From Gammaproteobacteria bacterium (GTDB lineage Bacteria; Pseudomonadota; Gammaproteobacteria; JAKEHO01), in assembly GCA_022614965.1 (NCBI GenBank), contig JAKEHO010000082.1, forward strand, positions 12,069 to 76,068: a stretch of DNA of 64,000 nucleotides, written 5' to 3'. Positions 10,527 to 47,814 of this stretch are shown here, piece after piece. How positions within the stretch are numbered: the stretch's first letter is position 1; each line of letters opens with the position of its first letter. Under the pieces are notes generated by a model that searched no databases, was not told where the DNA came from, and saw nothing but the letters and a program-made list of their open reading frames with translations. The position numbers and the translations under genes are program-made.

Positions 10527-10659
10527 AGCAGTCCCCTCCTCTTGACTTTAATTGTTCCTGAATTACTCGCCAGTGTGGTGGCGGGCGGATGATTCGCGTG
10601 ATTAATAGACGCTAAACCCCTTAGCAGGCTGCACCAGCGGCATTGTGGGGATCGTTACG

Positions 10660-12108: not shown

Positions 12109-12130
12109 TATCTTTCTTTCACGAGCTTTT

Positions 12131-12500: not shown

Positions 12501-12505
12501 GCCCC

Positions 12506-12820
12506 TCAGGCAACCCGCACACCGAGCAGGACATCTTTTGCGCGTAACTCCCGCATGGACTCGAGCCCGCTATCGATGAGCAGCTCCGGCTTTCGATGTT
12601 GGAGTTCTTGGGCTATCGTGTCAAGCAATTCCCGGCCGGGCCATCCAGTCATCTCCTGAATCAGCTCGAGCAGCCGGGCCGCCGCTAAATTGAGCTCGAT
12701 ATATGCCACCTTGTCGCGCCGATCACGGAAGAGCAGCGAATGCGTCGCCTCCTTAGGAGGCTTTCGCGGTTTGTAGTTTGGGCTAATTCGATGGACGGAA
12801 AACGATACTTGAGGAGCCAT
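12506..12820 (-). pseudogene. C-terminal fragment of a DUF2063 (HvfC/BufC-like) RiPP maturation partner
   Basis: The 104-aa ORF matches only the C-terminal half of DUF2063 proteins (..LLFRDRRDKVAYIELNLAAARLLELIQE..GRELLDTIAQEL..). It is in the same frame as the DUF692 fragment upstream, 32 codons after that fragment's TAA. Confidence 0.6.
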
Positions 12821-12916
12821 GCCAGCGGGCTCAGCACTGGGACGCCGGCCAGACAGTGCTCTGGATCCCGAATATGGCGCGTAAATGCGTACTGGATTTA
12901 GGTAAATGTCGCGCGC

Positions 12917-13321
12917 TTATCCATGCTGTTTGATCCGCTCTGCTACGTAATGCGCCGCGTCCTCGGTGAAGGGGATAGGCAATAGATCATAGAGGTGGCC
13001 ATCGTCTGCACAGTAGCTTAAGTGCTCCCTGTAGCAGCGAACAGTGTACTCCACCAGGAATTGCTTGATGCGCTGAAGGTACGCTTCATCCAGCGGCGCT
13101 GGAGCGCCGAGATTCAACGACAGGCCGTGGCATATTAAGGGCCTGCGTTCGGTGATGGCCCGGAATCGACGTCCAAGGCGGCTACCCACATCGATCCTGA
13201 TCTCGGGCGCCACCTCCATAAAACTCACCGGCGAAGGCGCCTCCTCAGCAAGCGGGCCCAATAGGGCCCGCTTGCTGACCGAGATCTGCGCCCGGCACGG
13301 GGTATCGACGCTGCTCCACAA
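12917..13321 (-). pseudogene. N-terminal fragment of a DUF692 multinuclear non-heme iron oxidase (HvfB/BufB-like)
   Basis: FMEVAPE...PLICHGLSLNLGAPAPLDEAYL...YREHLSYCADDGHLYDLLPIPFTEDAAHYVAERIKQ matches the first half of DUF692. It ends at TAA 12917-12919, and similarity continues about 20 codons past the stop (ARDIYLNPVRIYAPYS). TTG start, no SD. Confidence 0.65.
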
Positions 13322-13333
13322 TAAACCGAAAAT

Positions 13334-13690
13334 TTACTCGGAAGACAGGCTTGCGCCGCACTTCCCTTCGCCGCACTTCCCCTCGCCCTTCATCTCGCCG
13401 CCACTACGACCCTCGGACTGCTCGTCACCCTCGGCCTTCTTGCCTTCACCGCACTTCCCCTCGCCGCATTTGCCTTCGTGAGCCTTCCTCTTCTCACCGC
13501 ACTTCCCTTCGCCACACTTTCCTTCTGCACCCTTCTCACCGCCATGCTCCGCTACCATATAGCCATTGGAGAATTGCGTCATGCTAAACGGATTCTCCGC
13601 GGCATTCGCGAGCGGTGCCGCTGCCAGCGATACAGCAAACGTGGTACCGATCGCCGCGGCGATGGGCTTTAACGTTGATCTCCTCGACAT
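13334..13690 (-). CDS. EGKCG-repeat RiPP metallophore precursor (HvfA/oxazolin-type, bufferin-like), with Sec signal peptide
   Basis: AGGAGG lies 9 nt upstream of the ATG. Signal peptide ...AVSLAAAPLANA|AE. The core has six Cys, each within EGKCG and arranged as three EGKCGEGKCG doublets. Directly upstream of the DUF692 fragment. Confidence 0.8.
   Translation of the reverse strand: MSRRSTLKPIAAAIGTTFAVSLAAAPLANAAENPFSMTQFSNGYMVAEHGGEKGAEGKCGEGKCGEKRKAHEGKCGEGKCGEGKKAEGDEQSEGRSGGEMKGEGKCGEGKCGASLSSE
13358..13528 (-). repeat. six copies of a 15-nt coding unit (GGCGAAGGGAAGTGC-like, encoding GEGKC) in three tandem pairs
   Basis: Units at 13358-13372, 13373-13387, 13451-13465, 13466-13480, 13499-13513 and 13514-13528 on the plus strand (GCACTTCCC[T/C]TCGCC and variants). 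Confidence 0.9.
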
Positions 13691-13924
13691 AAGCCTATCC
13701 CTCCTAAGAGTAAGTCAAAAAAATACGCCCAGATCTCGGCGAGGTGGTTGCACGAAACACTTTCCACAACACTGCCTTTGTTGGGTCACCGTAAGTGCCT
13801 GGCTCCCGCTGAGGCACCCGCAACAACTGTGCTCGCTAGAGTCGAAACCACAAGCTCTTTCTATTGACCTGCCATCCCGATGCAAGGTTCCCTCCTAGAG
13901 CAGTCAATTCCCTACAACACGTCC

Positions 13925-18542: not shown

Positions 18543-19625
18543 TCATACCTTGACGTCCTTGCTCGCGAGGCGATAGCGGCCAATCGGTTTTGGCCTCCGC
18601 CACCACCGCCACAGCGCCCGACGGTCGATTTCGAAATCGACAGGATCGCCTGTGCGCACCGTGAGACAAGCAAGCTCTTGGGATTTCAACGCCGCTAACA
18701 AAGGCTGCAACCAGTCCTGTTCCACCCGCACGATAAAATCACGCCAAAGGTCATTATCCGGATAATGACTATACCGAAGGCCTTCAGTCACGGCGACCAG
18801 CACATCGCTTCCCGCAGGCGCCCCCGCCAGGACCGCATCGGCCCCGGTGGGCAGCCCGTCGATCGGCGTGCGAGTGAATATGGCGAGCCCGCGCGCGAGC
18901 GGGTCGTCGCTGTAGAGGTGTGACCATCGCCGTTCGGGGGGCTCCGGTAGCCTTCCGCTGCCCCAAAACCAAAGACTGTTAACGGCAAGCTCGCCGCGGG
19001 CCTCACGTGCTGCATTCACGGCACTTCCATGTAGCACCATCTGCACCTCGTTGATGAGCTGATGCCAGCGCCGTTGATCAGGGCCTGTGGGCATGAAGCC
19101 GTGAATGTCGCGCCCCACGGCCTCCGTCAATGTTCGGGTGTAAACACGCGGGATAACCGATAATGCCAGATACCACTGCGAGGGCGATGCCACTTCAAGT
19201 CTACCCCCAATATCGGCGAAAAGAGCCTGAAGTTCCGCCCCAAGCTCTATGGCCTCGGTTTCCCCGAGCGAAAATGCGGAGGAGTCCAGCAGCAGAACCC
19301 CGTTGCGATCGGGACTCAAATGGACCGGATCCGCCCGCATCCAGATCTCCACCCCGCCCGCGCCCGTACCCGGATCGGACAGCCGGGTCAAGGCGGCAAT
19401 CGGAGGGGCTGACGGCTCGGGCCATGTCACTCCAAAGAGCCCACACAAGGCGTATTCAACCGGCTTTCCAAGCACCGGCACGAGGCGCGCCCGGGCAAAA
19501 AGTAATTGCAATGCAGGAAGCCTCAGTTCCAGATTGAAAGCGCCCTCTTCGCTGGCACTAAGCGGGCCGAAAAGGCCCGGTATGAACAGCGTCAGGCGAC
19601 GTTCGAGTGCGGCCATCGGTGACAC
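18543..19625 (-). CDS. conserved hypothetical protein (resembles proteins annotated as RpfE-type regulatory protein; function unknown)
   Basis: 360-aa ORF filling the recJ-thrC gap in the same orientation, containing an ..NSLWFWGSG.. segment. No catalytic motif recognised. Confidence 0.6.
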   Translation of the reverse strand: MSPMAALERRLTLFIPGLFGPLSASEEGAFNLELRLPALQLLFARARLVPVLGKPVEYALCGLFGVTWPEPSAPPIAALTRLSDPGTGAGGVEIWMRADPVHLSPDRNGVLLLDSSAFSLGETEAIELGAELQALFADIGGRLEVASPSQWYLALSVIPRVYTRTLTEAVGRDIHGFMPTGPDQRRWHQLINEVQMVLHGSAVNAAREARGELAVNSLWFWGSGRLPEPPERRWSHLYSDDPLARGLAIFTRTPIDGLPTGADAVLAGAPAGSDVLVAVTEGLRYSHYPDNDLWRDFIVRVEQDWLQPLLAALKSQELACLTVRTGDPVDFEIDRRALWRWWRRPKPIGRYRLASKDVKV

Positions 19626-29340: not shown

Positions 29341-30990
29341 CTAGGCACTTCGCTCCTCTTCGGAAGGCGTGTATCCCGGGATCTTGGTGAGGTCCACTTC
29401 AGCAATCTCTCGTACATCAAGGTATTGTTCTGCGTACTTGGCGTACACCTTCTCACGCAGGAAAATATCGAAAAGGTCCGCATCAATATGATTGCTTTGT
29501 TTCATGCGGCCCATGATGACCAAGGCCTCCGAGAGTGACATTGCCTTCTTGTAGGGTCGATCGCTGGCCGTGAGTGCCTCGAACACATCTGCAATCGCGA
29601 CCATCCTTGCTGGAATGGACATCTGATCTCGGGTAAGGCGATTTGGATAACCCGTGCCATCCATGCGCTCATGGTGGCCACCTGCATATTCCGGCACCCG
29701 TTGAAGATGTTTGGGATAGGGAAGCGCCTTCAACATCTTGATGGTAACGACGACGTGATTGTTAATGATCTCCCTCTCTTCCTGCGTCAACGTACCACGG
29801 CTGATGTGCAGGTTATAAATCTCATCCTCGGTCAAAAAATTTGTTTCCTTGCCGCTTGTGTCAACCCATCGATACTTGCCAATCTGATTCACTCGTTCTC
29901 TGCCTTCATCCGACATGGACTCACCGCCAATATTGCATCGCCTTAGGAAGACGCGATCATCGTCCAACTGCATAAGTTGTTGCTGATACGCATCATCATT
30001 TGACAGGTCCAAGTCTGAGGGATCATCTTCACTGTCTTTCAATTTACGGCGCAACACCGCGATCTCGGCGTTACGCTTCAACACCTCAAAACGCGTGTCT
30101 ATCAGATGTACCCGATCAAATGTGGTCGAAAGCTTTGTCGGCTTGTCCACGACGTACTCCGGCGTGGTGATTTTCCCGCAGTCATGCAGCCAGGCCGCTA
30201 CACTCAGCTCGTAGCGTTCCTCCTCAGTCATATCAAAATCTTTCAGCGGACCAGCCTTTGTTTGACATGCAGCATCCGCGAGCATCTCAGTCAATACAGG
30301 CACACGCCGGCAGTGTCCTGCCGTATAGGGAGACTTTTCGTCAATCGCGTCGGCGATTAACTGAATAAGGGAATCAAACAGCTTGCGTTGCGCGTCGATC
30401 AACGACTTTTTGGTGATTGCCACCGCGGCTTGTGAGGCCAGCGACTCCACCAGCTGCTGATCGAGCAAGGAAAACGTCGTGACCGCGCCTGTCTTTGGAT
30501 CCTTTGCATTCAACAGTTGCAACACGCCGATGATCTCACTTTCATGATTAGTCATCGGAACGGTGAGAAACGATTTAGAGCGGTATCTAGTCCGTTCGTC
30601 AAACCTGCGTGTGCCGGAAAAATCAAATTCCTCGCTGGTGTACGCATCGGGAATATTGATTGTCTTTCCGCTCAATGCAGCACACGCCGCCACCATTTGA
30701 TTGTTCGGGCGCCCCTCCTCATCGTATAGGGGCAACGGTGCGTATGGGATCCGCGTGCCGCTGGTACCCCCCATCCTGATCCCAAGTGACTCCGTAAGCA
30801 TAATTTCAAATTTCAGATGGTCATCTTCGGTCCGTGAATAGAGCGTTCCCCCGTCAGCATTCGTGATTTCTTTTGCCCGCACCAGAATCATCTCCAACAG
30901 CCGGTTATGATCCTGCTCAGCGGAGAGTGCGATGCCGATTGCGTTGAGTTCTTGAAGAAGCTTTAGAAGATCGGGGCTCGATGGATCCAT
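29341..30990 (-). CDS. GAF domain-containing HD-GYP phosphodiesterase
   Basis: N-terminal GAF-like region, then the HD (WLHDCGK) and HHERMDGTGYP motifs. Confidence 0.85.
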   Translation of the reverse strand: MDPSSPDLLKLLQELNAIGIALSAEQDHNRLLEMILVRAKEITNADGGTLYSRTEDDHLKFEIMLTESLGIRMGGTSGTRIPYAPLPLYDEEGRPNNQMVAACAALSGKTINIPDAYTSEEFDFSGTRRFDERTRYRSKSFLTVPMTNHESEIIGVLQLLNAKDPKTGAVTTFSLLDQQLVESLASQAAVAITKKSLIDAQRKLFDSLIQLIADAIDEKSPYTAGHCRRVPVLTEMLADAACQTKAGPLKDFDMTEEERYELSVAAWLHDCGKITTPEYVVDKPTKLSTTFDRVHLIDTRFEVLKRNAEIAVLRRKLKDSEDDPSDLDLSNDDAYQQQLMQLDDDRVFLRRCNIGGESMSDEGRERVNQIGKYRWVDTSGKETNFLTEDEIYNLHISRGTLTQEEREIINNHVVVTIKMLKALPYPKHLQRVPEYAGGHHERMDGTGYPNRLTRDQMSIPARMVAIADVFEALTASDRPYKKAMSLSEALVIMGRMKQSNHIDADLFDIFLREKVYAKYAEQYLDVREIAEVDLTKIPGYTPSEEERSA

Positions 30991-36757: not shown

Positions 36758-39289
36758 ATGAAACGGACATTCTGGCAGCGTGACTGGTTTGCCGGTCTGG
36801 CTATCTCGATTGTTTTCCTGTTCATCGCCAACACCGGTTTCATCCGAAGCCTCGAACGTACGGCATATGACCTTGGCATTCGAGCGTCCTCGCATGATCC
36901 AGGGGACAAAGTCGCCATCATCGCAATCGATGATGAAAGCGTCGCCAATATTGGGCGATGGCCGTGGTCCCGTGATGTACTCGCCAAGATGATCGATGAG
37001 CTCGCAGGCAGCGGCGCAAAAGTGATTGGCAACACGGTGTTTATGTCTGAGCCGCAGATCGATCCTGGGCTTACCTACATTAATCAACTGATCGATTTTT
37101 ATACATCGTCCGGCCTCGCAAACGAACCGATTGAGCAGCTCGGGGAGATGGGAACCCTGTTGAACGATGCCCAAAGCGCACTGAACACAGACAAAAAACT
37201 CGCTGTTAGTATGAGAGAGGCGGGCGACGTCATCATGGCGATGCAATTCGTGCTCGGCCAACCACTCGGTAATCCCGACAAGGAGCTACCAGAGTTTGTC
37301 ACAAAATATGCGCTTCGGAACATCAGCTCCGGAAGCGGTGTCGGGCCGCGACCTGCATTAGCCGCCACCCCGCCTATCCAAGAACTCGGTAATGAAGCGA
37401 TCGGTATTGGCCATATCACCTTTCCTCTCGACTTTGATGGAGGTGTGCGCACGGAATCACTGGTGCTCGACTACTACGACCGTTTTTTCCCCTCCTTTTC
37501 ACTGTTGCTTGCGGCACAGAGTCTCAATCTAGGAATTGATGACATTCAGGTAACGCTCGGAGAGGGTATCAAACTCGGAAAGCTCAGTATCAAGACCGAT
37601 CCTTACTTGCAAATGAGACCCTTTTTCTACACCGATCGCGGGGATAAACCGGCGTTTCATGTGGATTCCTTTTTCGACGTGTACACCGACAAGATCCCGG
37701 CTGAGAAGTACCGGGATAAGATCGTGCTCATCGGCGCGACGGCCTTTGGCCTGGGTTCTCCGCAACTAACCCCTGTTAATTCTGCTATGGAGCCGGTTGT
37801 CACACTGGCCCACACCATCGCCAGCATCCTAAATGAAGATTTCTTCATCATCCCGGACTGGGGAGGGTTGGCGCGGATGGGGGCCTTCCTGGTGATTGCC
37901 TTGTATCTCATGTTCTTATTGCCAAGCCTCCGCGCAGGGATGGCAGCCGGGATCACCGCGGTGCTGCTCATCGCTCTTGTGCTCGGCGAGACCACATTTA
38001 TGGTTCGCGACGCCATGTGGTTAGAGCTGATGTGGCCTGCTAGTTTACTCTTCTTCGGGTATCTGCTGCTGACCACCAAACGCTATCTTGTCACGGAAAA
38101 GGGCAAGCTCCGCTCCGAGGCTGAATCGGCCGAGAGTAACCGGATGCTCGGCCTTGCCTTCCAGCAACAGGGCCAGCTGGATATGGCCTTTGAAAAATTC
38201 CGTAAATGTCCCCTTGACGACTCGATCATGGACCCACTGTACAACTTGGCGCTGGACTACGAGCGAAAGCGCCAGTTCAGCAAGGCCAACGCGACGTACA
38301 ACTACATGTCCCAATACGACCCCAATTTCCGAGACGTCAAGGAGCGAAGCCCTCGAGCAAAGGCGATGGAGGAGACCATCATGCTCGGCGGGCCGGGCTC
38401 CGGCCCAGCGGCTGGTACCCTGGTGCTGGATGTCGCCGGCGGCGTCGAAAAGCCCATGCTCGGCCGCTATCAAATCGAAAGGGAGCTCGGTAAAGGGGCC
38501 ATGGGGACCGTCTACCAGGGCAGGGACCCGAAGATCAACCGCGTCGTGGCGATTAAGACCCTGCCGCTCTCCCAGGAGTTTGAGGAAAATGAATTGGAGG
38601 CGGTGAAAACGCGTTTCTTCCGCGAGGCGGAGACGGCGGGTCGCCTGACGCATCCCCACATCGTGACGATTTACGATGCCGGCGAGGAGCACGATCTGGC
38701 CTATATTGCCATGGAGTTCCTCAAGGGCGAGGATTTGAGGCCATACACTAGTCGAGACAATCTGCTCCCCTTACGCACGGTCATCGATATCACCATCCAA
38801 GCGGCAGACGCACTGCATTACGCGCACTCGCAGAACGTGGTGCACCGTGATATAAAACCGGGCAACGTCATGTGGGAACGCGACACGGGAAACATCAAGC
38901 TAACGGATTTCGGCATCGCCCGGATTACCGACGCCAGCAAGACAAAGACCGGAATGGTCTTTGGCACCCCCTCCTACATGTCACCCGAGCAGCTTTCCGG
39001 CCAAAAGGTCGACGGGCGTTCAGATCTATTTTCGCTCGGCGTGATGCTATACCAGCTGATCTGTGGTTCGTTGCCATTTCAAGGTGATTCCATGGCGACA
39101 CTCATGTATAAGATCACGAATGAGCCGCATCCGAACATCGTGAACCGGCGACCCGAACTGGGCCAAGAAGCACCGCTCTTGGTACCCATTATCAATAAGG
39201 CGTTACAAAAGGCAGTGGAAGCACGCTACCAAACCGGTGGTGAACTGGCGAGGCACATGCGGACCTGCCTGCAGTCACTCACAAAGTGA
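36758..39289 (+). CDS. CHASE2 sensor domain-containing Hanks-type Ser/Thr protein kinase (CHASE2 - TM - TPR - kinase)
   Basis: N-terminal TM plus CHASE2 (IIAIDDESVANIGRWPWSRD), a TM cluster around aa 355-445, a TPR-like segment, and a C-terminal kinase (GAMGTVY..VAIK, HRDIKPGN, DFGIAR, GTPSYMSPEQ). Confidence 0.88.
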   Translation: MKRTFWQRDWFAGLAISIVFLFIANTGFIRSLERTAYDLGIRASSHDPGDKVAIIAIDDESVANIGRWPWSRDVLAKMIDELAGSGAKVIGNTVFMSEPQIDPGLTYINQLIDFYTSSGLANEPIEQLGEMGTLLNDAQSALNTDKKLAVSMREAGDVIMAMQFVLGQPLGNPDKELPEFVTKYALRNISSGSGVGPRPALAATPPIQELGNEAIGIGHITFPLDFDGGVRTESLVLDYYDRFFPSFSLLLAAQSLNLGIDDIQVTLGEGIKLGKLSIKTDPYLQMRPFFYTDRGDKPAFHVDSFFDVYTDKIPAEKYRDKIVLIGATAFGLGSPQLTPVNSAMEPVVTLAHTIASILNEDFFIIPDWGGLARMGAFLVIALYLMFLLPSLRAGMAAGITAVLLIALVLGETTFMVRDAMWLELMWPASLLFFGYLLLTTKRYLVTEKGKLRSEAESAESNRMLGLAFQQQGQLDMAFEKFRKCPLDDSIMDPLYNLALDYERKRQFSKANATYNYMSQYDPNFRDVKERSPRAKAMEETIMLGGPGSGPAAGTLVLDVAGGVEKPMLGRYQIERELGKGAMGTVYQGRDPKINRVVAIKTLPLSQEFEENELEAVKTRFFREAETAGRLTHPHIVTIYDAGEEHDLAYIAMEFLKGEDLRPYTSRDNLLPLRTVIDITIQAADALHYAHSQNVVHRDIKPGNVMWERDTGNIKLTDFGIARITDASKTKTGMVFGTPSYMSPEQLSGQKVDGRSDLFSLGVMLYQLICGSLPFQGDSMATLMYKITNEPHPNIVNRRPELGQEAPLLVPIINKALQKAVEARYQTGGELARHMRTCLQSLTK

Positions 39290-39295
39290 TTGGCT

Positions 39296-40120
39296 ATGGA
39301 CCTGACTAGCAAGCTTGAAATCGCGAACATCTCTCATGTCGGCAAGAAACGCCGGCATAACGAGGACAGCACGGTGAGCGACCCGAGTCTCGGACTGCTT
39401 GTGCTCGCAGATGGCATGGGGGGATATAGAGCGGGCGAGGTGGCAAGCAGCATTGCCGTGACGTCGATCATGAATGCCGTCAAAGGCCAGGTTGGAAATC
39501 TAAGACCCAATCGGCGGAGTGGCCCGGCCGGTTCGCACCCGGAATCTCTGCTGATCAAAGACGCCATCAGCCAGGCAAACTGGAATATCTACAAGATCGC
39601 CCGGGACGAACCACAGTGCCAAGGCATGGGAACGACGGTGGTGGTCAGCCTCTTCTATAATGATGAGATTACGATTGCCCATGTGGGCGATTCGAGGCTC
39701 TACCGGCTGCGTGGGGGCAAACTCCAGCAACTCACGACTGACCACTCGCTAATTCAAGAGCTTATCGACCGGGGCATGTTTACGCCTGAGGAAGCCGAGG
39801 TGTCGATGCCTAAGAATCTGGTCACCCGGGCGCTCGGGGTCAGAGCGGACGTCCAGGTGGACATTCAGAAGGGTCATGTCAGCCCCGGGGACATCTACCT
39901 GCTGTGTTCGGACGGCCTCAATGATATGGTAACTGATGAAGAAATTCGCTTAACCCTAAGTAAATATAGTGCTAATCTTGTACAGGCGGCAGGGGAATTG
40001 GTACAGCAAGCAAACGAAAAAGGAGGCAATGACAACATCTCCGTGATACTGGCGCGCCCCCTGGACCACTTTCCAGCACCGAGCAGCTTGTATCAGAGGG
40101 TATTTGGGCTATTCAGTTGA
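39296..40120 (+). CDS. PP2C-family Ser/Thr phosphatase
   Basis: LADGMGG, GTTVV, LLCSDGL and GGNDNIS motifs. Starts 6 nt after the kinase stop. Confidence 0.88.
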   Translation: MDLTSKLEIANISHVGKKRRHNEDSTVSDPSLGLLVLADGMGGYRAGEVASSIAVTSIMNAVKGQVGNLRPNRRSGPAGSHPESLLIKDAISQANWNIYKIARDEPQCQGMGTTVVVSLFYNDEITIAHVGDSRLYRLRGGKLQQLTTDHSLIQELIDRGMFTPEEAEVSMPKNLVTRALGVRADVQVDIQKGHVSPGDIYLLCSDGLNDMVTDEEIRLTLSKYSANLVQAAGELVQQANEKGGNDNISVILARPLDHFPAPSSLYQRVFGLFS

Positions 40121-40142
40121 CGTCAGTCGATAGGACAGTTCT

Positions 40143-40865
40143 ATGGCGAAGCTTATTCTGAGCCTGAATGGTGTGGTTCAAGGGGAGTTCGCGCTCGAGA
40201 AGGAACGCACCACAGTTGGGCGACGTCCCGATAACGACATCCAAATTGATAATTTGGCAGTTAGCGGAAAACACGCGCTGATCATTACGATCCTAGACGA
40301 CTCCTTCCTTGAAGACCTTGGCAGCACGAATGGCACCTATGTCAATGGGAAACTGATAAAGAAGCAGGCGCTGCGAAACGGTGACATACTCACCATTGGC
40401 AAGCATGAGCTTAAATATATAAACGAACACGCAACGGCAGATGACGAGCAGTTCGAAAAGACTCTGATCATTCGGCCGAGCTCGGTGTCGAGCGCTATTG
40501 CCGCCGCTCAAGCCGCTAAACAGGCTGGTGTGGCTCCAGCACCATCGACACCACCAGAATCAAAATCACAGCACAACGCTTCCATCATGCCGTTGGGATC
40601 GCTTACAGTCCTAAATGGCCCCATCGCCGGTAAGGAACTCGAACTCACCAAGGCGCTGATCACATTGGGCAAGCCAGGTGTGCAGGTGGCCGTTATCTCA
40701 CGTCGCCCACAAGGTTACTTCCTGACGCATATCGAAAGTGACGGTGATGGCCAGCGTTATCCCCTGATCAACGGTCAGCCGATTGGCCCCCGGGCCTATG
40801 CGTTGCGCAATAGCGACGTAATCGAATTGGCTGGGATCAAAATGGAATTCTCGCTAAACAAGTAG
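40143..40865 (+). CDS. FHA domain protein (canonical N-terminal FHA plus degenerate C-terminal FHA-like domain)
   Basis: N-terminal TVGRRPDNDIQIDNLAVSGKHALI...GSTNGTYVNG..GDILTIG, an Ala/Pro linker, and a second beta-rich domain lacking the Arg/Ser/His/Asn pThr-binding residues. Confidence 0.85.
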   Translation: MAKLILSLNGVVQGEFALEKERTTVGRRPDNDIQIDNLAVSGKHALIITILDDSFLEDLGSTNGTYVNGKLIKKQALRNGDILTIGKHELKYINEHATADDEQFEKTLIIRPSSVSSAIAAAQAAKQAGVAPAPSTPPESKSQHNASIMPLGSLTVLNGPIAGKELELTKALITLGKPGVQVAVISRRPQGYFLTHIESDGDGQRYPLINGQPIGPRAYALRNSDVIELAGIKMEFSLNK

Positions 40866-40935
40866 CAACAATTACATCGCCTCCGCACCAAAGCCAGCGA
40901 CCTGATCTCCTTACCGTCTTACTACACGAGACGGG

Positions 40936-43185
40936 CTAACCTTTGGTCGTGTAGGTAAACACGCCATTCCAGGCTACCTCAGGCGGATGTCTCCGAAAAT
41001 GGGCAACGCGTTTGATGTATAAGCTGTACAGGCCACGCTCAGGCGCTATCTTTTGTAAATTGAGAAACTGCAACTCGGCCCTATCCCAGTCCTCGGCACG
41101 GTAGTATTTCAAAGCCTGCGCATACAGGGTCATTTCATCGAGTGTGGTCTTGTCGATGTCGTTAATGAGCCCAATGGGCTCAAAGATCGCCACCGGCTCA
41201 TCCTTACCCATCACCCGCACCCGGTCGAGCTCGCGGTAGAAGTACTCCGGCACCGCCCCCTTGGTCGACGCGCTCACAATCAGCGGGACACCGTATTCTT
41301 TCGTGAGCCCTTCCAAGCGCGACCCCAAATTGACAGCATCTCCGATCACCGTATAGGCCATTCGAAACGCCGATCCCATGTTGCCTACGCGCATTACGCC
41401 CGTATTAATCCCGACCCCCACCCTGAGTGGAGGCCAGCCACGGGATCGGAATTCGTTCTGTAAGGAGTATGTGCGCTCAAGCAGCTCCATTCCAGCCATT
41501 AATGCGTGTCGCGCGTGCTCTGGATCTTCCACCGGAGCACCCCAGAATGCCATGATGGCATCGCCCATGTACTTATCAATAGTGCCCCGGTGTTTGTGGA
41601 TGATCTGGGTCATCGGCGTCAGAAACTCATTCATGAGCTGGGATAGATCCTTCGGAGTAAGGCCTTCAGAGAGGTTCGTAAAGTCGCGTACATCGGAAAA
41701 TAAAACGGTCAGTTCCCGGCTCTCCGCTTCGACTGAATAGGATGCCGGATCCCTACTCATCTCGTTGACCAGTTCCGGTGGTACGTATTGGCCAAAGAGC
41801 CCCATGATTTGGCGTTCCCTTCGTGTCTCCACGAAGAAACCATACGTCATATTGAGTAGGTACATCACGAGGATCATGATGACGCCCGAGGCGATCGGCA
41901 GGACCAGATTGGCATAGTGCCAAATTGCAAAATTGAAGCCGATGGAAATCACGGTCACGAGCAGTGTGACCAGCGTGGCCCAAAGAGGCGTCAATAGCGG
42001 CAGTATCAACGCCATCACGAGCCCGATGATGAGCAGGAGTATGAACTCCGCACCCAAGGTGTAGGCAGGCTTTTCTTTAATCGTCTGATCCAGTATCCCG
42101 GAGATGAGATTGGCATGGATCTCAACCCCAGGAAAGGCTTTCTGCACCGGGGTCGCCCTTAGATCCAGCAAGCCTGGAGCAGTGGCACCAACCAGTACGA
42201 CCGCGTTTTTTAGGATCTCGGGGGCTACACGCCCGTTCAGCACATCGGCTGCGGAGGCATAGGGAAAGCTTCCCTGCCTACCGCGATAGGGTACCAATGT
42301 CCGTATACGCCCATCGACGGGTACCAAGTGGTGACCGAGCTTTAGCCACTCAAGTCCTGGGTAGCGCTTATCCCATGGAAGGGTGTAGGCATACTGGGGC
42401 TCAACTTGGGCCACTCCAAGTATCACCCGCGCGACTTCAAGTGACAGGGAAGCGTAATAGGCGCCATCGTATTCGACGAGCATTGGCACCCGTCGGACGG
42501 TACCGTCCTCATCCACCCACGGATTGAAATGCCCCCCGCCGATGGCATTCAGTTGGAACTCGGCCAGGTTTCCTCCATAGCCTCCCGCCCTGATGAAGTC
42601 AATCTTTCTTCCTTTGAAACCGCCCTGCACAAATGTGGGGGACGGCAACGCACCACTCTTGGACACCTCTCCAGTGTCGTTCGGTTCGTTGTAATAGAAA
42701 CCCAGTATGACGGGCCGTCCCTTGATGCCCCCTGCAAACAGCCTGTCGTAATCGAGCTTTGGCCGAATACTTTCCAGCCGTGCGCGGTACTCCGGCAAAT
42801 CGCTAAATCTGTCGTTCGCAAGACCCTCGAGTACGTCTAGCCCTGAACTCCTGTCTGGCTCCGCGAAGACCAAGTCAAATGCCACAAGGGCGACGTGATA
42901 GTGATTAAAGAGCTGATCCAGGAAGCGCGCCATGCGGTCCCTGCTCCAGGGCCAGCGCCCTTCCTCGGCCAGACTCTTCTCATTGATGTCGACAATGACG
43001 ATACGGGGATCCTGTGAGTTAGGCATCGTAAATACGAGGCGCGCATCATAGGCGATGTTTTCCATGCGATCGATTAAGCGCCAGTGCAGCAGGCCGGACA
43101 CATGGAGGAGAAACATGACCACCACGAGGAGACCGATGATCACACGCACCAAGTGGCGCTTGAGGAGTTGCAGGAAGGTCTTCAT
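40936..43185 (-). CDS. CHASE2 sensor domain-containing class III adenylate/guanylate cyclase
   Basis: N-terminal TM plus CHASE2 (VIVDINEKSLAEEGRWPWSRD), a TM cluster, and a cyclase domain (LFSDVRDFT, KYMGDAIMAFWGAP, VIGDAVNLGSRLE). Confidence 0.9.
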   Translation of the reverse strand: MKTFLQLLKRHLVRVIIGLLVVVMFLLHVSGLLHWRLIDRMENIAYDARLVFTMPNSQDPRIVIVDINEKSLAEEGRWPWSRDRMARFLDQLFNHYHVALVAFDLVFAEPDRSSGLDVLEGLANDRFSDLPEYRARLESIRPKLDYDRLFAGGIKGRPVILGFYYNEPNDTGEVSKSGALPSPTFVQGGFKGRKIDFIRAGGYGGNLAEFQLNAIGGGHFNPWVDEDGTVRRVPMLVEYDGAYYASLSLEVARVILGVAQVEPQYAYTLPWDKRYPGLEWLKLGHHLVPVDGRIRTLVPYRGRQGSFPYASAADVLNGRVAPEILKNAVVLVGATAPGLLDLRATPVQKAFPGVEIHANLISGILDQTIKEKPAYTLGAEFILLLIIGLVMALILPLLTPLWATLVTLLVTVISIGFNFAIWHYANLVLPIASGVIMILVMYLLNMTYGFFVETRRERQIMGLFGQYVPPELVNEMSRDPASYSVEAESRELTVLFSDVRDFTNLSEGLTPKDLSQLMNEFLTPMTQIIHKHRGTIDKYMGDAIMAFWGAPVEDPEHARHALMAGMELLERTYSLQNEFRSRGWPPLRVGVGINTGVMRVGNMGSAFRMAYTVIGDAVNLGSRLEGLTKEYGVPLIVSASTKGAVPEYFYRELDRVRVMGKDEPVAIFEPIGLINDIDKTTLDEMTLYAQALKYYRAEDWDRAELQFLNLQKIAPERGLYSLYIKRVAHFRRHPPEVAWNGVFTYTTKG

Positions 43186-43285: not shown

Positions 43286-43891
43286 TTATTGCGACGGGCT
43301 GACTGCACGTTGTGCAACGGTCAGAAATTCGTCGAATAACTGCAGCAACGCTTTATTGAACGCTCTCACTGTCGCCTCGAATGAGTCACCGTCGACCGCG
43401 ACTTGCGTAGAGTAACGGTTCAACAATATGGGTCGATCTCCGCCTGGACGATCTACGCGGAGCTCCAAGGCCACAGCCACTTGTATGCTATCAGGCCGTT
43501 TACGTTGCTCGAATTGTGTGATCTTACCTGATATGACTAATTCAGCCGCAGCATTATTCTCAGTGGCAACGACGGCCGCGGCGTTGGCATCTCTGAGGTA
43601 GGAAACGAGATGATCCCGCACGAGGCGGCCTGGACTGTCTTGCCAAAAATGGTAACGGTACTGCTGCAGTTCCACCGACTGCGCATCATTTGTAAAGAGC
43701 ATTGCCCGCTCGATGTACACCCCATTGGCATTAAATTGCTTCACGAGCACCATCTCTTCCGCGAGTGGTGTACTCATCACATGAACAGCTTGCGGCTCGG
43801 GCAAGCGATAGAAATGATCAGCGGGCACTGGCGATTGCCGCGCGCAAGCACTGAGGCCCGCAGTCAGAACGACGAGCATCCAGCTGCGCAC
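43286..43891 (-). CDS. ABC-transport auxiliary lipoprotein (DUF330/PqiC-like)
   Basis: Lipobox LTAGLSAC; about 200 aa; overlaps the MlaD-like stop by 1 nt (GTG start). Confidence 0.7.
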   Translation of the reverse strand: MRSWMLVVLTAGLSACARQSPVPADHFYRLPEPQAVHVMSTPLAEEMVLVKQFNANGVYIERAMLFTNDAQSVELQQYRYHFWQDSPGRLVRDHLVSYLRDANAAAVVATENNAAAELVISGKITQFEQRKRPDSIQVAVALELRVDRPGGDRPILLNRYSTQVAVDGDSFEATVRAFNKALLQLFDEFLTVAQRAVSPSQ

Positions 43892-44904
43892 TACTCCCTG
43901 CCCCCTTCTTCCGGGGCGCCTCCTTCAGCCGGTGGTGCCGCACCGCGGAGCAACAGTGCCGGATCCTCTCTGATCTCACGGGTGAACTCATGGACATTCC
44001 GGGCACTGCCTTCCAGGTGGTATGCCACAGCATCAATATGTTCAGACACAACTTGCAGTGATTTCTGTAGATCAGCCACGGACTGTCGAATGTCATCCTG
44101 GTTCTCAGTTACCAGTGCGTCCATATCCAACAACAACTTATCCATGAGCGCCCTTGTGCCGTTAATCTGCGCCATCAGGCCACTGAGTTCCCTCGATGCG
44201 CCCTCGATATTCTTCAGAACCTCTGCCACCTGTTCCCGGTTCTCCTCACTGAGCAGCTCCTTCAACCTATCGGCGCTGTTGTTGAGCTTAACCAGCAACG
44301 AGCGCGTATCCTCGATGAGTTCGGGATGGTCCGCCAGCGCATTCAGCTTATCGAAAAAAGGACGTACGCTGTCGTCAATGAGCGCGCTAAGTTCCTCGGC
44401 AAGCCCGTTAATGCGTCCATTCAAGTTCTCGAGTACCGGCTCGATCCCCTTCTGCGAGAGCTGATGAAAGTCGTCTGCGATCTCAGCAACTGCATCAAAT
44501 AGGCTAACGCCTTCTTGCCCTCGGATCGCATCACCTGGACTAAGCAATGTCTCGCTCTTGCCTTCGCGGATGTTGATGGAGACCGCAGATATCAGGCCTG
44601 ATGCCACGATCCTCGCGACGCTGTCCGTCGGGATGTGCCAATCTTTACGTACGCTGACTTCGACCCGATAGTTTGTCTTACCCCCGCTCCGCCCGGGGAT
44701 AATGTCCTCCACCTGCCCAATCTGAAAGCCTTCGTAGAAAACAGGCGTCCCTTGCTTGATGCCGGATACATTGCTGTAGTTGACAAAGTACGTGTCGGTG
44801 GGCCCCGCCCGTCCGGTGATCTGGTACAGCAAAACCAGCAAGGCCACTGCCATCGCCAGCACAAAGACCCCTACCACCAAATAGTTAATATGTTCGCGTT
44901 TCAT
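43891..44904 (-). CDS. MCE/MlaD-family substrate-binding protein
   Basis: N-terminal TM (INYLVVGVFVLAMAVALLVLL), an MCE domain (..VSGIKQGTPVFYEGFQIGQVEDI..) and a long helical C-terminus. Start set at ATG 44904. Confidence 0.8.
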   Translation of the reverse strand: MKREHINYLVVGVFVLAMAVALLVLLYQITGRAGPTDTYFVNYSNVSGIKQGTPVFYEGFQIGQVEDIIPGRSGGKTNYRVEVSVRKDWHIPTDSVARIVASGLISAVSINIREGKSETLLSPGDAIRGQEGVSLFDAVAEIADDFHQLSQKGIEPVLENLNGRINGLAEELSALIDDSVRPFFDKLNALADHPELIEDTRSLLVKLNNSADRLKELLSEENREQVAEVLKNIEGASRELSGLMAQINGTRALMDKLLLDMDALVTENQDDIRQSVADLQKSLQVVSEHIDAVAYHLEGSARNVHEFTREIREDPALLLRGAAPPAEGGAPEEGGRE

Positions 44905-44914
44905 CGCCCTGTGC

Positions 44915-45724
44915 CTAGTCCCGGGTGAGGCGTTGCAGGTAGTCGTCAGGGTCGATTTCTTTCGTGCCTGGCCGGCGATGGAGCATCGCCTGAATGCGCT
45001 CATTCTCCGAGTTGCGAACTTCATCAACAGTTCCCGTCATGAGTACGCATCCCTTTTCCAAAATCATGATCCTGTCCGCAATCTTACAAGCGCTGCTCAG
45101 CTCATGAGTCACCACAACGATGGTCATTTGCAGTGCATCCCTGAGGCGCAAGATTAGCTCATCCAGCTCCGCAGCCACGACCGGGTCGAGCCCGGCTGAC
45201 GGCTCATCGAAAAACAGCAGTTTCGGATCCATTATGATGGCGCGCGCTAGCGCCGCCCTCTTCAGCATGCCACCGGACAATTGCGACGGCATGAGATGCT
45301 CGAAGCCTCCGAGATTCACGAGCTCCAGTTTCATCCGCGTCATGATTTGCATCGTCTTCTCATCTAATTTGGTATGCTCGCGTAACGGGAGCCGGATATT
45401 CTCACCCACGGTCATGGAGCTAAACATTGCGCCGCCCTGAAATGCGACCCCGATGTTCTTGCGCAACTCGTGCAGTTCTGCGGCGCTTGCCCGGGCGATG
45501 TCCAATCCTAACAGCCGGACGCATCCGCTGGTTGGGCGATGCAACCCCAGTAGGTAACTTAACAAAGTGCTTTTCCCCGAGCCGCTGCGGCCCATGATGG
45601 CCATGATCTCGCCCGGACTTACAGTCATGTTCACTCCACGCAAGATCTGAACCGCGCCATAATGCGTTACTAAGTCTTGTACCTCCATGACGGGATCATC
45701 TACGCTTGTAAGGACGGAGGCCAT
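44915..45724 (-). CDS. ABC transporter ATP-binding protein (MlaF-like)
   Basis: Walker A GRSGSGKST, signature LSGGMLKRAALARA, Walker B LLFFDEP. Confidence 0.9.
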   Translation of the reverse strand: MASVLTSVDDPVMEVQDLVTHYGAVQILRGVNMTVSPGEIMAIMGRSGSGKSTLLSYLLGLHRPTSGCVRLLGLDIARASAAELHELRKNIGVAFQGGAMFSSMTVGENIRLPLREHTKLDEKTMQIMTRMKLELVNLGGFEHLMPSQLSGGMLKRAALARAIIMDPKLLFFDEPSAGLDPVVAAELDELILRLRDALQMTIVVVTHELSSACKIADRIMILEKGCVLMTGTVDEVRNSENERIQAMLHRRPGTKEIDPDDYLQRLTRD

Positions 45725-45727
45725 GTT

Positions 45728-46540
45728 TCAACGATTAAGAAAGTACGTAAATACCATGTCGGCGAGTACGATATAAGAGATGGATAACACAACGGCTCGA
45801 GTGGTTGCCCGCCCAACACCCTCCGCCCCACCAGTCACACTGAACCCATTGCTTACGCCAACCAGTGCAATGATGCCAGCAAACACAACACTCTTGATGA
45901 GCCCTTGCATGATGTCATCCGCCGCCAATACGTCCAGCGTTTGCTGCAGGTATGCCTCGACACCGAGCCCGAGCTCAACGGTGCTGTAGACCGCCCCACC
46001 AAATAAGGCGGCGAGATCCGAGAAAAAGGTTAACGTTGGCACCATAATTAACATGGCCAGCAACGCCGGCGACACCAGATAACGCACAGGATTAATCCCC
46101 ATTACACGCAGCGCATCGATCTCCTGTGAGACTTGCATGGTTCCGATCTGCGCCGCCAACGCAGAACCCGACCGGCCGGCTATAAGCACGCCAGTAATTA
46201 ATGGACCAAACTCACGGGTCACTGAGAGCGCGATCCCGATCACTACCTGAGACTCGGCACCAAATATTCTCAGCGTATGGATCCCTTGGATCGCCAACAT
46301 CACGCCGACAGCAAACGATAATACGAACACGATAGGTATCGCCCCGATTCCTATCGTCATCATTTGGGAGAAGATGCTGGGTAGCCGGACCGGCTGGTGT
46401 CTCACGGATCCAAAGACGACCCAATAAAGGCTCTCTACAAGCAGCGCGGCAACATAGCCGCATTCCTCAACGGCCTGGACTGCGGTACGGCCCAGTTGTT
46501 GTACAGACAACAGCGGATGCTTGAGCTCTGGGCTAGCCAT
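45728..46540 (-). CDS. ABC transporter permease (MlaE-like)
   Basis: Polytopic MlaE-type permease. Start set at ATG 46540 (MASPELKHP..), which overlaps the STAS gene stop by 8 nt. Confidence 0.85.
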   Translation of the reverse strand: MASPELKHPLLSVQQLGRTAVQAVEECGYVAALLVESLYWVVFGSVRHQPVRLPSIFSQMMTIGIGAIPIVFVLSFAVGVMLAIQGIHTLRIFGAESQVVIGIALSVTREFGPLITGVLIAGRSGSALAAQIGTMQVSQEIDALRVMGINPVRYLVSPALLAMLIMVPTLTFFSDLAALFGGAVYSTVELGLGVEAYLQQTLDVLAADDIMQGLIKSVVFAGIIALVGVSNGFSVTGGAEGVGRATTRAVVLSISYIVLADMVFTYFLNR

Positions 46541-46871
46541 CCTCCCGAAGTCGCTCCTCGACGGTGGCGTGGATGGGGAACACCTTATCGAGACGCGCGA
46601 GCTGGATGACACTCAAGGCGGCATCACTGACCCCGACGAGACCGAATTTCAATTCTTTCTTCCTGGCAGTCTGATAACCTTCTACCAGACTCGCCACACC
46701 GGAACTATCGATGTAGGTCACTTGAGAGAGTTCAACGAGCACATTACGACCACCCTTCAAGAACTCCAATATAACCTTACGTGCATCAACCGAACACGAC
46801 AGATCCACATCCCCCATCAACTCCACGACCGTGTAGCGCCCTTCTTTGCGTGTCTTGTATTTCATAGCCAT
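46533..46871 (-). CDS. STAS domain protein, RsbV/SpoIIAA-type anti-sigma-factor antagonist
   Basis: 112 aa with the phosphorylatable-serine motif YIDSSGVASL. SD GAAGGA lies upstream. Confidence 0.85.
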   Translation of the reverse strand: MAMKYKTRKEGRYTVVELMGDVDLSCSVDARKVILEFLKGGRNVLVELSQVTYIDSSGVASLVEGYQTARKKELKFGLVGVSDAALSVIQLARLDKVFPIHATVEERLREDG

Positions 46872-46882
46872 TGTTCCTTCTG

Positions 46883-47299
46883 TTACTCTATCTTCTTCAC
46901 CATCTCCAGGCAGTTGCCGCTGCCATCGGCGAGTTGCCCAAATGAACAGTCGTCCATGATCTCGCGCATGAAATAGGTTCCCAAACCACCTGGACGAACG
47001 TCGCTTAAATCCCGCGGCTTGATTCTGGCTGGATCAACTGGTTTGGCAAAGTCGGTCAAGCGAAAAATAATATCTTTGCCATTATTGAGTATTTCCAGGA
47101 CAATTTCACCCGACGGATCTCCTCTATATGCGTGTTGAATAATGTTTGTACACGCCTCGTTGACTGCGATCACAAGCTGAGATGTCACTGTGGAACAGCA
47201 TCCGACCCTCTCGGCAGCATTTCTAACCTCCGCGCGCACCGTAGCCAGCCTAGTTGGATCAGCAGGGAAACGGAGCTCCAGCAGGCGTTCTTCGCTCAT
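46883..47299 (-). CDS. RsbW/SpoIIAB-type anti-sigma regulatory serine kinase (HATPase_c)
   Basis: N-box NEACTNIIQHAY and G-box RPGGLGTYFMREIMD; 138 aa; 11 nt upstream of the STAS gene. Confidence 0.8.
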   Translation of the reverse strand: MSEERLLELRFPADPTRLATVRAEVRNAAERVGCCSTVTSQLVIAVNEACTNIIQHAYRGDPSGEIVLEILNNGKDIIFRLTDFAKPVDPARIKPRDLSDVRPGGLGTYFMREIMDDCSFGQLADGSGNCLEMVKKIE

Positions 47300-47373
47300 T
47301 GTGGCTCATCGTCGAACAAAGCCAAGGTGAATGGGGACGCAGTTAAGTGTTCTCCATTCCGATCGATGGCGCA

Positions 47374-47814
47374 TCAGGCGATCCTCTTCACACACTCTAA
47401 ATAAGCTGTCTCATCCGGCATGCTCTCCCCGCGCTCGGCCGCCCATAATACGTCCGCAAGGCACTCCATCATTCGGTGCTCAAGGTCTTGGGGACTCGAA
47501 AACCTAGGCAGAAGTGAATGATAGATCGCCACAATTCCTGGTGGCCGGTCTGTGGCCAACTGCTCGTGCACAGCAATATGCATACTCATGTGCAAAAACG
47601 GGTTTGGTTCGCCACGCTCGGGTGGAAAATCCTCTCGCAACGCATGCTCTTCGTCTTCCAGCAGGCTATGATACTCGGGATGCTCTCGAATGATCCCCGC
47701 AACCACTTGCTCCAATGGCTCCATCGGCCCACGTTCCTTCTGTTTCTTCCAGACCTCTAAGAAAAAACGCCGAGCGGACTCGCGATCCTGTACAAACACC
47801 CTGTTGCCCTTCAA
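47374..47814 (-). CDS. DUF1841 family protein
   Basis: ..PMEPLEQVVAGIIREHPEYHSLLED..NPFLHMSMHIAVHEQL..HRMMECL.. matches the DUF1841 pattern as I recall it. Confidence 0.7.
   Translation of the reverse strand: MKGNRVFVQDRESARRFFLEVWKKQKERGPMEPLEQVVAGIIREHPEYHSLLEDEEHALREDFPPERGEPNPFLHMSMHIAVHEQLATDRPPGIVAIYHSLLPRFSSPQDLEHRMMECLADVLWAAERGESMPDETAYLECVKRIA

Follow-up and report, generated by a model that had tools for sequence, protein, structure and literature searches.

The subject of this analysis is a stretch of 64,000 nucleotides from a gammaproteobacterium (contig JAKEHO010000082.1, positions 12,069 to 76,068 of the forward strand), referred to throughout as the window, and, within it, six genes on the minus strand at 43286–47299, which the list of open reading frames (ORFs), Pfam and NCBIfam present as co-oriented and densely packed. 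The two leading genes encode a serine kinase and a STAS protein resembling those of bacterial partner switches, and the four that follow encode a lipid transporter of the MCE family, composed of an MlaE-family permease, an MlaF-like ATPase, an MCE protein and a lipoprotein. The arrangement suggests that the kinase-STAS pair controls the adjacent lipid transporter by phosphorylation. Stated in full, the reading that we prefer is that a transporter of the Mpc type has taken on an RsbW/RsbV-type pair as its regulatory arm in the cytoplasm, the pair having an additional partner besides, and we put its chances only slightly below even. We infer it from gene neighborhoods, and one substantial observation counts against it.

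The evidence begins with a survey of relatives. A scan with an alignment of the kinase, restricted to one genome per GTDB species, returned at least 582 relatives, and the best 80 loci, with a kinase identity of 49–67%, were analyzed, their neighbors being identified by phmmer with the proteins of the window. These loci belong mostly to metagenome-assembled genomes (MAGs) of Gammaproteobacteria and Alphaproteobacteria, and the taxonomic labels of the MAGs are unreliable, with several reading “Enterobacteriaceae” or “Klebsiella”; the only cultured organism among the 80 is Methylohalomonas lacus HMT 1, which has the complete set. The STAS gene is followed by those for MlaE, MlaF, the MCE protein and the lipoprotein in 57 of the 76 informative species-level loci, and because so many of them repeat it, the arrangement of kinase, STAS and transporter is far above chance expectation. 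Such a co-occurrence survey had been called for when the locus was first read from its letters alone (the sequence-only reading), and its outcome favors the placement of the pair upstream of an MlaE operon. The alphaproteobacterial loci keep this linkage without the genes that surround it in the gamma lineage (nth, DUF1841, the CHASE2 cyclase, and the FHA, PP2C and Hanks kinase genes), so that the linkage is maintained independently of context.

The junction between STAS and MlaE is likewise shared among the relatives. The stop codon of the STAS gene overlaps the start of MlaE by 8 nt in the window (ATGGCTAG), and the identical overlap (ATGnnTGA) recurs in 30 of 58 loci, while in 54 of the 58 the STAS stop and the MlaE start lie no more than 26 nt apart. 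Such overlap and close spacing are the signature of translational coupling between STAS and MlaE, and, because the two genes overlap, they are necessarily co-transcribed.

Regarding the pair itself, the N-box and G-box motifs of the kinase are found at residues 47–58 (NEACTNIIQHAY) and 102–110 (RPGGLGTYF), and N47, E48, H56, D83 and R102–G107 are invariant in 29 homologues. Its HATPase_c_2 match spans the full length of the protein, and the best match of the family profile in the Protein Data Bank (PDB) is RsbW of Bacillus subtilis (6M36_A, 4.9e-21). The best NCBIfam matches are also RsbW models, far under their cutoff (NF003144, 57.9 vs 145 bits), and the SpoIIAB equivalog is missed (TIGR01925, 33.3 bits vs a cutoff of 135). 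The kinase family includes many homologues of 136–150 aa with 55–85% identity, nearly all of them metagenomic.

The STAS protein carries the SpoIIAA/RsbV phospho-serine motif YIDSSGV at residues 53–59, with the DSSG tetrad formed by D55, S56, S57 and G58, and scores above the cutoff of the anti-sigma factor antagonist model TIGR00377 (73.1 vs 53.45 bits). The serine of DSSG is invariant across the alignment of about 83 STAS sequences, and the longer patterns YIDSSG[VI]A.L[VI]E and LARL[DE] are invariant in all of its loci. A sequence search of the PDB returned TM1442 (5.8e-9), as well as SpoIIAA and RsbV, and an AlphaFold2 model (pLDDT 87), which includes a C-terminal helix at residues 104–111, has TM1442, RsbV and SpoIIAA as its best fold matches (TM 0.83–0.88). 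A tblastn search with STAS against 72,556 plasmids gave no match at 1e-8, and hence no tractable example on a plasmid. Because the two genes are adjacent and the motifs are present, Ser56 is the predicted phospho-acceptor and STAS the predicted substrate of the neighboring kinase. The sequence-only reading had recognized the motifs of both proteins and proposed an RsbW-type kinase with a phosphorylatable STAS partner; given the RsbW match of the kinase and the RsbV-type family and fold matches of STAS, the two are indeed a bona fide RsbW/RsbV-type pair.

The transporter had been described as one of the Mla/MCE type, which is correct as far as the MlaE, MlaF, MCE and DUF330 genes are concerned, but the architecture is that of Mpc (Mla-Pqi chimeric) rather than that of canonical Mla. 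In Brucella abortus, Mpc is MpcEFDA, in which MpcE is an MlaE permease that begins with a STAS domain, MpcD is an MCE protein of 331 aa whose needle is a coiled coil, and MpcA is a PqiC-like outer-membrane lipoprotein, MpcF completing the set (PMC12436622). In the window, the best NCBIfam match of the ATPase is MlaF (PRK11831, 2.4e-57, under the cutoff), and its PDB matches include MlaF of A. baumannii, P. aeruginosa and E. coli along with mycobacterial MceG. The MCE protein has one MlaD domain followed by about 200 mostly helical residues (TIGR00996, 1.5e-25), over which Pfam gives weak matches of the coiled-coil type, and the lipoprotein matches pqiC weakly (NCBIfam, 2.9e-5). As for the short MlaD, MlaC and MlaB of canonical mlaFEDCB, the window has instead an MCE protein of 337 aa followed by a lipoprotein gene; there is no MlaC gene in the operon, nor was any MlaC or MlaA noticed in the window. 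On these matches, the transporter has an Mpc-type four-gene core, in which a PqiC-like lipoprotein joins MlaE, MlaF and a long MCE protein.

A tblastn search of plasmids and chromids with MlaE revealed a four-gene Mpc-like operon in two Azospirillum species, in Azoarcus KH32C and in Ruegeria B32, all four of them switch-less and with permeases of 374–387 aa that combine STAS_2 and MlaE domains (Pfam). The window MlaE is 42% identical to the Azospirillum STAS-MlaE fusions, the MCE protein matches a 319-aa Azospirillum MlaD-family protein with E 2e-13 over 282 residues, and the lipoprotein matches the Azospirillum auxiliary lipoprotein with E 8e-4. More generally, the window shares with Mpc systems the gene order, an MCE protein of about 320–440 aa with a helical extension, an MlaE that is 38–46% identical, and an MCE protein and a lipoprotein that are homologous over their length. 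It differs from them in its regulatory part: in Mpc the permease itself carries a STAS domain at its N-terminus and neither kinase nor phosphatase is present, whereas the window MlaE consists of the MlaE domain only (Pfam), without an N-terminal STAS, and is accompanied by a separate RsbV-type STAS gene and a kinase. The two architectures are complementary, since switch-less Mpc operons encode a STAS-MlaE fusion whereas the switch-linked MlaE, of ∼270 aa, is without STAS, and the free STAS gene sits where the fused domain would be. The adjacency across contexts, the overlap with MlaE and this complementary distribution of STAS are the reasons for supposing a physical collaboration between the STAS protein and the transporter.

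The possibility that the free STAS is a detached copy of the domain fused to MlaE was also considered and is not supported, for the protein is RsbV-like and BLASTP against the Azospirillum fused STAS gave E 6.9; the segments VTYIDSSG of the free and VEALDTVG of the fused STAS align in register, without significance. In one relative (L001/L002), the MCE gene, at 10622–13747, is seemingly split by a 471-aa ORF on the opposite strand that has no Pfam match, leaving a fragment with the MlaD domain (10622–11017) and a 362-aa remainder (12659–13747), and this may be the insertion of a mobile element into the transporter operon.

The closest point of reference for a STAS protein acting on such a transporter is MlaFEDB of E. 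coli, which has the STAS subunit MlaB (PMC7367683, PMC5016091). Thr52 of MlaB is the structural equivalent of the SpoIIAA/RsbV phospho-serine and lies in the middle of the contact surface between MlaF and MlaB, the phosphomimetic T52E substitution weakens the binding of MlaF, and phosphorylation of MlaB, in the words of the authors, “remains to be determined” (PMC7367683). The window has in common with MlaFEDB the MlaE/MlaF ABC core and a small STAS protein with a Ser or Thr at the position of the SpoIIAA phospho-site. On the other hand, neither a kinase nor a phosphatase is known for MlaB, the window STAS falls in the RsbV/SpoIIAA family and has the modeled C-terminal helix, and the window transporter combines a long MCE needle with a lipoprotein of the PqiC type.

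The mechanism that we propose would run as follows. The overlapping stop and start codons would couple the synthesis of free STAS to that of MlaE, and free STAS would substitute for the STAS domain that the switch-less homologues carry fused to their MlaE. Unphosphorylated, it would bind the MlaF-like ATPase in the manner of MlaB and thereby license transport; the kinase would phosphorylate Ser56, the equivalent of MlaB Thr52 at the MlaF interface, and STAS would be released. A GAF-SpoIIE phosphatase, encoded in nearly all relatives, would reset the switch on a small-molecule signal, while in the lineage of the window the switch would work in one direction only, follow the ATP/ADP state of the kinase, or depend for its reset on a phosphatase encoded elsewhere. 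Finally, STAS, the kinase or both must have at least one further partner, the transporter being one output among others, because a quarter of the related loci keep the switch after loss of the transporter genes. What the data show is the gene content, the motifs, the linkage and coupling kept across loci, the patterns of loss and the purifying selection; the protein–protein contacts, the phosphorylation of STAS and the sign of its effect are points that we infer. A bolder version of this proposal, which we regard as possible at rather less than an even chance, is that an RsbV-type STAS, its kinase and an ancestral GAF-PP2C displaced the built-in STAS of Mpc transporters, which would yield the first natural MCE transporter under signal-dependent, post-translational on/off control and would realize the hypothesis framed for Thr52 of MlaB, the input perhaps being a cyclic nucleotide from the neighboring CHASE2 cyclase.

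A complete partner-switching module comprises phosphatase, kinase and STAS, and the window has the latter two. Among the relatives, a GAF-SpoIIE phosphatase of the PP2C type accompanies the kinase in 74 of 79 informative loci (57 separate, 17 fused), and for this reason the ancestral unit is a full switch of phosphatase, kinase and STAS that takes its input through a GAF domain. The separate gene encodes 420–430 aa and lies immediately upstream of the kinase, as in L003–L005 and many other loci, where synteny places it between DUF1841 and the kinase; the presence of the phosphatase, separate or fused, was confirmed with Pfam in M. lacus (L033) and in L038. The spacer between DUF1841 and the kinase is 74 nt in the window, and the absence of the phosphatase is not an assembly artifact, because three independent assemblies of the same species (L085–87) and the next lineage (L088–90; kinase 85% and STAS 81% identical) have spacers of 74–75 nt. 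No SpoIIE-like ORF was found elsewhere in the window and no remnant of the phosphatase in the 74-nt spacer; the lineage of the window has lost its cognate GAF-SpoIIE phosphatase.

Between the window and the nearest phosphatase-less lineage, the ratio of nonsynonymous to synonymous substitution rates (dN/dS) is 0.057 for the kinase, 0.119 for STAS, 0.043 for MlaE, 0.071 for MlaF, 0.187 for the MCE protein and 0.188 for the lipoprotein, values that are approximate given a dS of 0.9–1.8, which is near saturation; all six genes are under purifying selection between these two lineages. The PP2C encoded 7 kb away, which had been put forward as the opposing activity, does exist, but it belongs to a Hanks-kinase/FHA module: its gene starts one base past the end of the Pkinase gene at 39289 and is followed by the FHA gene. 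Since the same trio occurs in relatives that have their own GAF-SpoIIE, it is no lineage-specific replacement and is ruled out as the opposing phosphatase.

Two further observations concern the genes around the phosphatase. A fusion of GAF-SpoIIE with HATPase_c_2, of about 590 aa, is found in L038 (7642–9405) and in 16 other loci (e.g., L040, L047, L051, L053–55, L058, L060, L061, L063, L067, L071, L076, L078 and L081), on several branches of the tree, and is analogous to HsbR, CrsR and SypE, with GAF replacing the receiver domain. In addition, the DUF1841 gene of relatives directly adjoins the start of GAF-SpoIIE or overlaps it (L003, 6243–7936; L005, 7303–9008; L010, 7299–9004) and is absent from the alphaproteobacterial loci; in the gamma lineage, DUF1841 may therefore belong to the module as well.

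Several observations weigh against control of the adjacent transporter, at least as the sole task of the pair. The Mla genes are absent in 19 of the 76 loci, all of the gamma lineage, which keep kinase and STAS and in which the STAS gene adjoins the cyclase or the FHA gene directly. In a neighbor-joining tree of kinase and STAS, whose topology is approximate because both proteins are short, these loci fall on up to ten branches. For pairs with estimable dS, dN/dS in the Mla-less clades is 0.035–0.054 for the kinase and 0.015–0.10 for STAS, compared with 0.012–0.15 for Mla-containing pairs, so that this comparison found no relaxed selection on kinase or STAS after Mla loss. Because it is under purifying selection after that loss, the kinase-STAS switch has a function independent of the adjacent transporter; a switch serving that transporter only would be expected to decay after its loss, and as no decay is seen, the adjacent transporter is not the whole story. 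Retention can be accounted for in three ways, by a target transporter encoded elsewhere, by a second output, or by a conventional sigma/anti-sigma switch, and the repeated loss of the transporter with the switch retained is a warning that a second output is probable.

The STAS protein provides the next set of points on this side. It falls well short of the NCBIfam model mlaB_1 (29.6 bits vs a cutoff of 90), the MlaB chains in the PDB score only E 0.077–0.2 against it, and in the fold search MlaB (7CH7_E) takes rank 37, with TM 0.63 and E 3e-5. By sequence it is thus RsbV/SpoIIAA-like and not MlaB-like, its predicted fold matches RsbV and SpoIIAA better than MlaB, and its similarity to the fused STAS of Azospirillum MlaE is undetectable by BLASTP. 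Inspection of the alignment revealed no STAS residue that separates Mla-containing from Mla-less loci. Moreover, if unphosphorylated STAS simply means that transport is on, the phosphatase-less window is predicted to be permanently off, unless extra assumptions are made. One may speculate that MlaF captures newly made STAS before the kinase does, with Ser56 buried in the interface, that the kinase is governed by ATP/ADP, like SpoIIAB, or that a phosphatase encoded elsewhere acts on STAS. Of the phosphorylation-switched transporter that the sequence-only reading envisaged, then, the RsbW/RsbV pair, the conserved linkage and coupling and the STAS-less MlaE stand, while a STAS that is not MlaB-like and the 19 loci without Mla tell against it.

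An explanation that we think unlikely, yet must be weighed seriously, is a conventional partner switch acting on a distant sigma or anti-sigma factor, like RpoS or FlgM, in which the transporter is co-transcribed cargo or a member of the same regulon and STAS never contacts it. No sigma-70-family gene was found in the window by phmmer with RpoH and RpoE against 654 six-frame segments (best E 0.7; RpoH was taken from an Azospirillum locus and RpoE from E. coli, and sigma-54 was not searched for), and Pfam scans of 38 ORFs contained no sigma factor, about 20 further ORFs being called housekeeping by eye only; for the sigma-70 family, the original claim of a window without a sigma factor gene is sound. 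This absence is weak evidence, because HsbR/HsbA and CrsR/CrsA control RpoS, whose gene is not known to belong to the cluster of either pair. In profile, family model and fold alike, the nearest matches of kinase and STAS are RsbW and RsbV, the switch is kept under unchanged purifying selection in the 19 Mla-less loci, and STAS is equally conserved with and without the Mla genes, all of which a conventional switch would accommodate. To this may be added that RpoS is bound by HsbR and CrsR, gammaproteobacterial fusions of PP2C and kinase, that HsbA alternates between HsbR and FlgM (PMC6482189), and that the relatives have an analogous GAF-PP2C-kinase fusion. What a distant sigma or anti-sigma target leaves unexplained is that STAS always adjoins MlaE, with a conserved 8-nt stop/start overlap, that the linkage occurs in Alphaproteobacteria and Gammaproteobacteria in unrelated contexts, and that MlaE is without STAS exactly where the switch is present.

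Two other explanations appear quite improbable. The switch could regulate the neighboring cluster of CHASE2 cyclase, CHASE2-Hanks kinase, PP2C and FHA genes, the Mla operon having been inserted in some lineages; in the gamma lineage the switch is always beside the FHA/PP2C/Hanks-kinase genes and often beside the cyclase, its STAS gene abuts genes of the cluster once Mla is lost, and a cyclic nucleotide produced by the cyclase could be the ligand sensed by the GAF domain of the phosphatase. However, alphaproteobacterial and other loci have phosphatase, kinase, STAS and Mla genes without the neighbors of this cluster, the cyclase is missing in many gamma loci (e.g., L009, L010, L015 and L024), the FHA, PP2C and kinase genes are on the opposite strand, and the common 8-nt STAS/MlaE junction argues for an ancestral Mla operon and not for repeated insertion. 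With an equally slim chance, the switch of the window is a decaying remnant, in which STAS is a constitutive MlaB-like subunit or inert and the kinase no longer signals. The intact catalytic motifs and DSSG, and the dN/dS of kinase and STAS between the phosphatase-less lineages, at a dS of 0.9–1.7, speak against decay, as does the clade of L069, L075 and L080, which also retains kinase and STAS without a phosphatase gene. The loss of the cognate GAF-SpoIIE gene in the window and its nearest lineage fits a remnant, and so does the fact that none of the 80 GTDB loci with demonstrable Mla genes lacks the phosphatase gene (in L057, which is without it, the contig ends after the STAS gene, and in L064 the contig begins at the kinase). 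In the clade just named, possibly together with L057, the GAF-SpoIIE and Mla genes are both gone, and kinase and STAS stand between DUF1841 and the cyclase, with a somewhat raised dN/dS (about 0.16 for the kinase and 0.11–0.17 for STAS) and shortened STAS C-termini.

When read as the regulatory arm of an Mpc-type transporter with a further partner, the pair can be set beside the partner switches already described. It resembles RsbU/RsbW/RsbV and SpoIIE/SpoIIAB/SpoIIAA of B. subtilis in having an HATPase_c_2 kinase beside a DSSG STAS, to which the relatives add a SpoIIE-family PP2C phosphatase, and it differs from them in that the window is without a sigma-70 gene and a phosphatase, the phosphatase input in the relatives is GAF, the module is translationally coupled to a transporter, and the kinase remains under the NCBIfam RsbW cutoff. 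Partner switches with other outputs include SypE/SypA of Vibrio fischeri, BtrU/V/W of the Bordetella type III secretion system, and HsbA-HsbD of Pseudomonas. In SypE/SypA, HsbR/HsbA, CrsR/CrsA of Shewanella, BtrU/V/W and HenR, as here, STAS is the output or acts on a target that is not known to belong to the gene cluster, and in the SypE/SypA, HsbR/HsbA and CrsR/CrsA group kinase and PP2C can be fused, as they are in 17 of the 80 relatives; this fusion makes an output centered on STAS plausible, as in SypE/SypA, and lends support to the regulatory role proposed. The input of the relatives is a GAF domain and not a receiver, and the output proposed for them, an ABC lipid transporter of the MCE family, had no precedent in the literature searched. 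In Anabaena, the HenR-STAS-glycosyltransferase partner-switch module is reported to act on a glycosyltransferase (PMC13555669).

Partner switches whose output is other than an adjacent sigma factor and STAS subunits of Mla and Mpc transporters are thus already known, and what is new here is their combination and the candidate output. The sequence-only reading knew of no characterized example, and the searchable full-text literature on MlaB, MlaE, MlaF or MCE together with partner switching likewise gave no description of the kinase-STAS-transporter arrangement, only the hypothesis of the MlaFB paper and unrelated work; a review of STAS-only proteins mentions neither Mla, nor lipids, nor ABC transporters. 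The regulation of bacterial lipid traffic between the two membranes is little understood, and the present family, with its hundreds of kinase relatives, is one in which the STAS protein beside the MlaFE core has a kinase and a phosphatase of its own. If the proposal is correct, partner switching would extend from transcription to the direct control of an envelope transporter, and a fused regulatory domain would have undergone non-orthologous displacement by a switchable one. As M. lacus HMT 1 is cultured and has the complete set, the question of phospho-regulation is directly testable.

The coordinates of the genes are collected in Table 1. The layout agrees with the six co-oriented, tightly spaced genes first described, down to the lengths of the junctions as read from the sequence: the gap between kinase and STAS is 11 nt if STAS begins at its first ATG, and, after the 8-nt overlap, MlaE and MlaF are separated by 3 nt, MlaF and the MCE gene by 10 nt, and the MCE and lipoprotein genes overlap by 1 nt. 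The true ATG is at 46540 for MlaE and at 44904 for the MCE protein. For STAS, the true start is probably the second ATG, at 46865 (110 aa), because the NCBI annotation of an identical protein and all relatives begin there; an AAGGA ribosome-binding site is then 9 nt upstream, not 3, and the gap to the kinase becomes 17 nt. The identical set of STAS, kinase and MlaE genes is also present in the NCBI MAGs GCA_022616165.1 and GCA_973794095.1. Scans for promoters and terminators returned counts not above those of shuffled sequence and do not show where the transcript begins or ends; within that limit, no terminator-like site was found between DUF1841 and the kinase, and the DUF1841 gene is possibly co-transcribed with the kinase.

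Table 1. Genes of the kinase-STAS-transporter locus and its surroundings in the window
Feature	Coordinates	Strand	Size and evidence
RsbW-type Ser kinase (HATPase_c_2)	46883..47299	-	138 aa; Pfam PF13581 3.1e-30
Single-domain STAS, RsbV/SpoIIAA type	46533..46871	-	112 aa; Pfam STAS 5.9e-16; TIGR00377 73.1 bits
MlaE-family permease	45728..46540	-	270 aa; Pfam MlaE 6.3e-72; TIGR00056 above cutoff
MlaF-like ABC ATPase	44915..45724	-	269 aa; Pfam ABC_tran 1e-32
Single-MCE protein, MpcD-like, with long helical C-terminal extension	43891..44904	-	337 aa; Pfam MlaD 6.6e-14
PqiC/MpcA-like lipoprotein (ABC_trans_aux, former DUF330)	43286..43891	-	201 aa; PF03886 5.1e-12; lipobox LSAC
DUF1841-kinase spacer, position of the GAF-SpoIIE (PP2C) gene in relatives, empty here	47300..47373	-	74 nt
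DUF1841 gene, upstream neighbor kept in relatives	47374..47814	-	Pfam DUF1841 4.2e-53; synteny
CHASE2-adenylate/guanylate cyclase	40936..43185	-	Pfam CHASE2 + Guanylate_cyc; co-oriented, 100 nt downstream of lipoprotein gene
PP2C_2 phosphatase of the CHASE2-Hanks kinase/PP2C/FHA module	39290..40120	+	Pfam PP2C_2

Other features of the window deserve a brief description. The signaling cluster next to the transporter extends over 36758–43185, and in it the CHASE2-Hanks Ser/Thr kinase gene (36758–39289, plus strand), the PP2C_2 gene and the FHA gene (40143–40865, plus strand) face the cyclase gene on the minus strand; the trio is conserved beside the kinase-STAS module across the gamma lineage, and the cyclase is variably present. 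On the minus strand, 12506–13690, together with a DoxX gene at 10059–10526, has the appearance of the remnant of a bufferin/MNIO-type cluster for a ribosomally synthesized and post-translationally modified peptide (RiPP). Its RiPP-like precursor has 118 aa, a signal peptide, six “EGKCG” repeats and no match to a Pfam family, the ORF after it matches only positions 10–122 of the 263-position MbnB_TglH_ChrH profile, and in the one that follows the DUF2063 partner is represented by its C-terminal domain alone (NGO1945_C). The second half of the MbnB-like gene was not found in other frames, and the locus is either a decayed cluster or the product of an assembly deletion. Between recJ and thrC lies a 360-aa ORF (18543–19625, minus strand) that matches no Pfam family at E 1e-6. 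A protein of 549 aa encoded at 29341–30990 on the minus strand, the only other one in the window to have a GAF domain, combines GAF with an HD_5 (HD-GYP-like) domain and is possibly a component of cyclic-nucleotide or c-di-GMP signaling.

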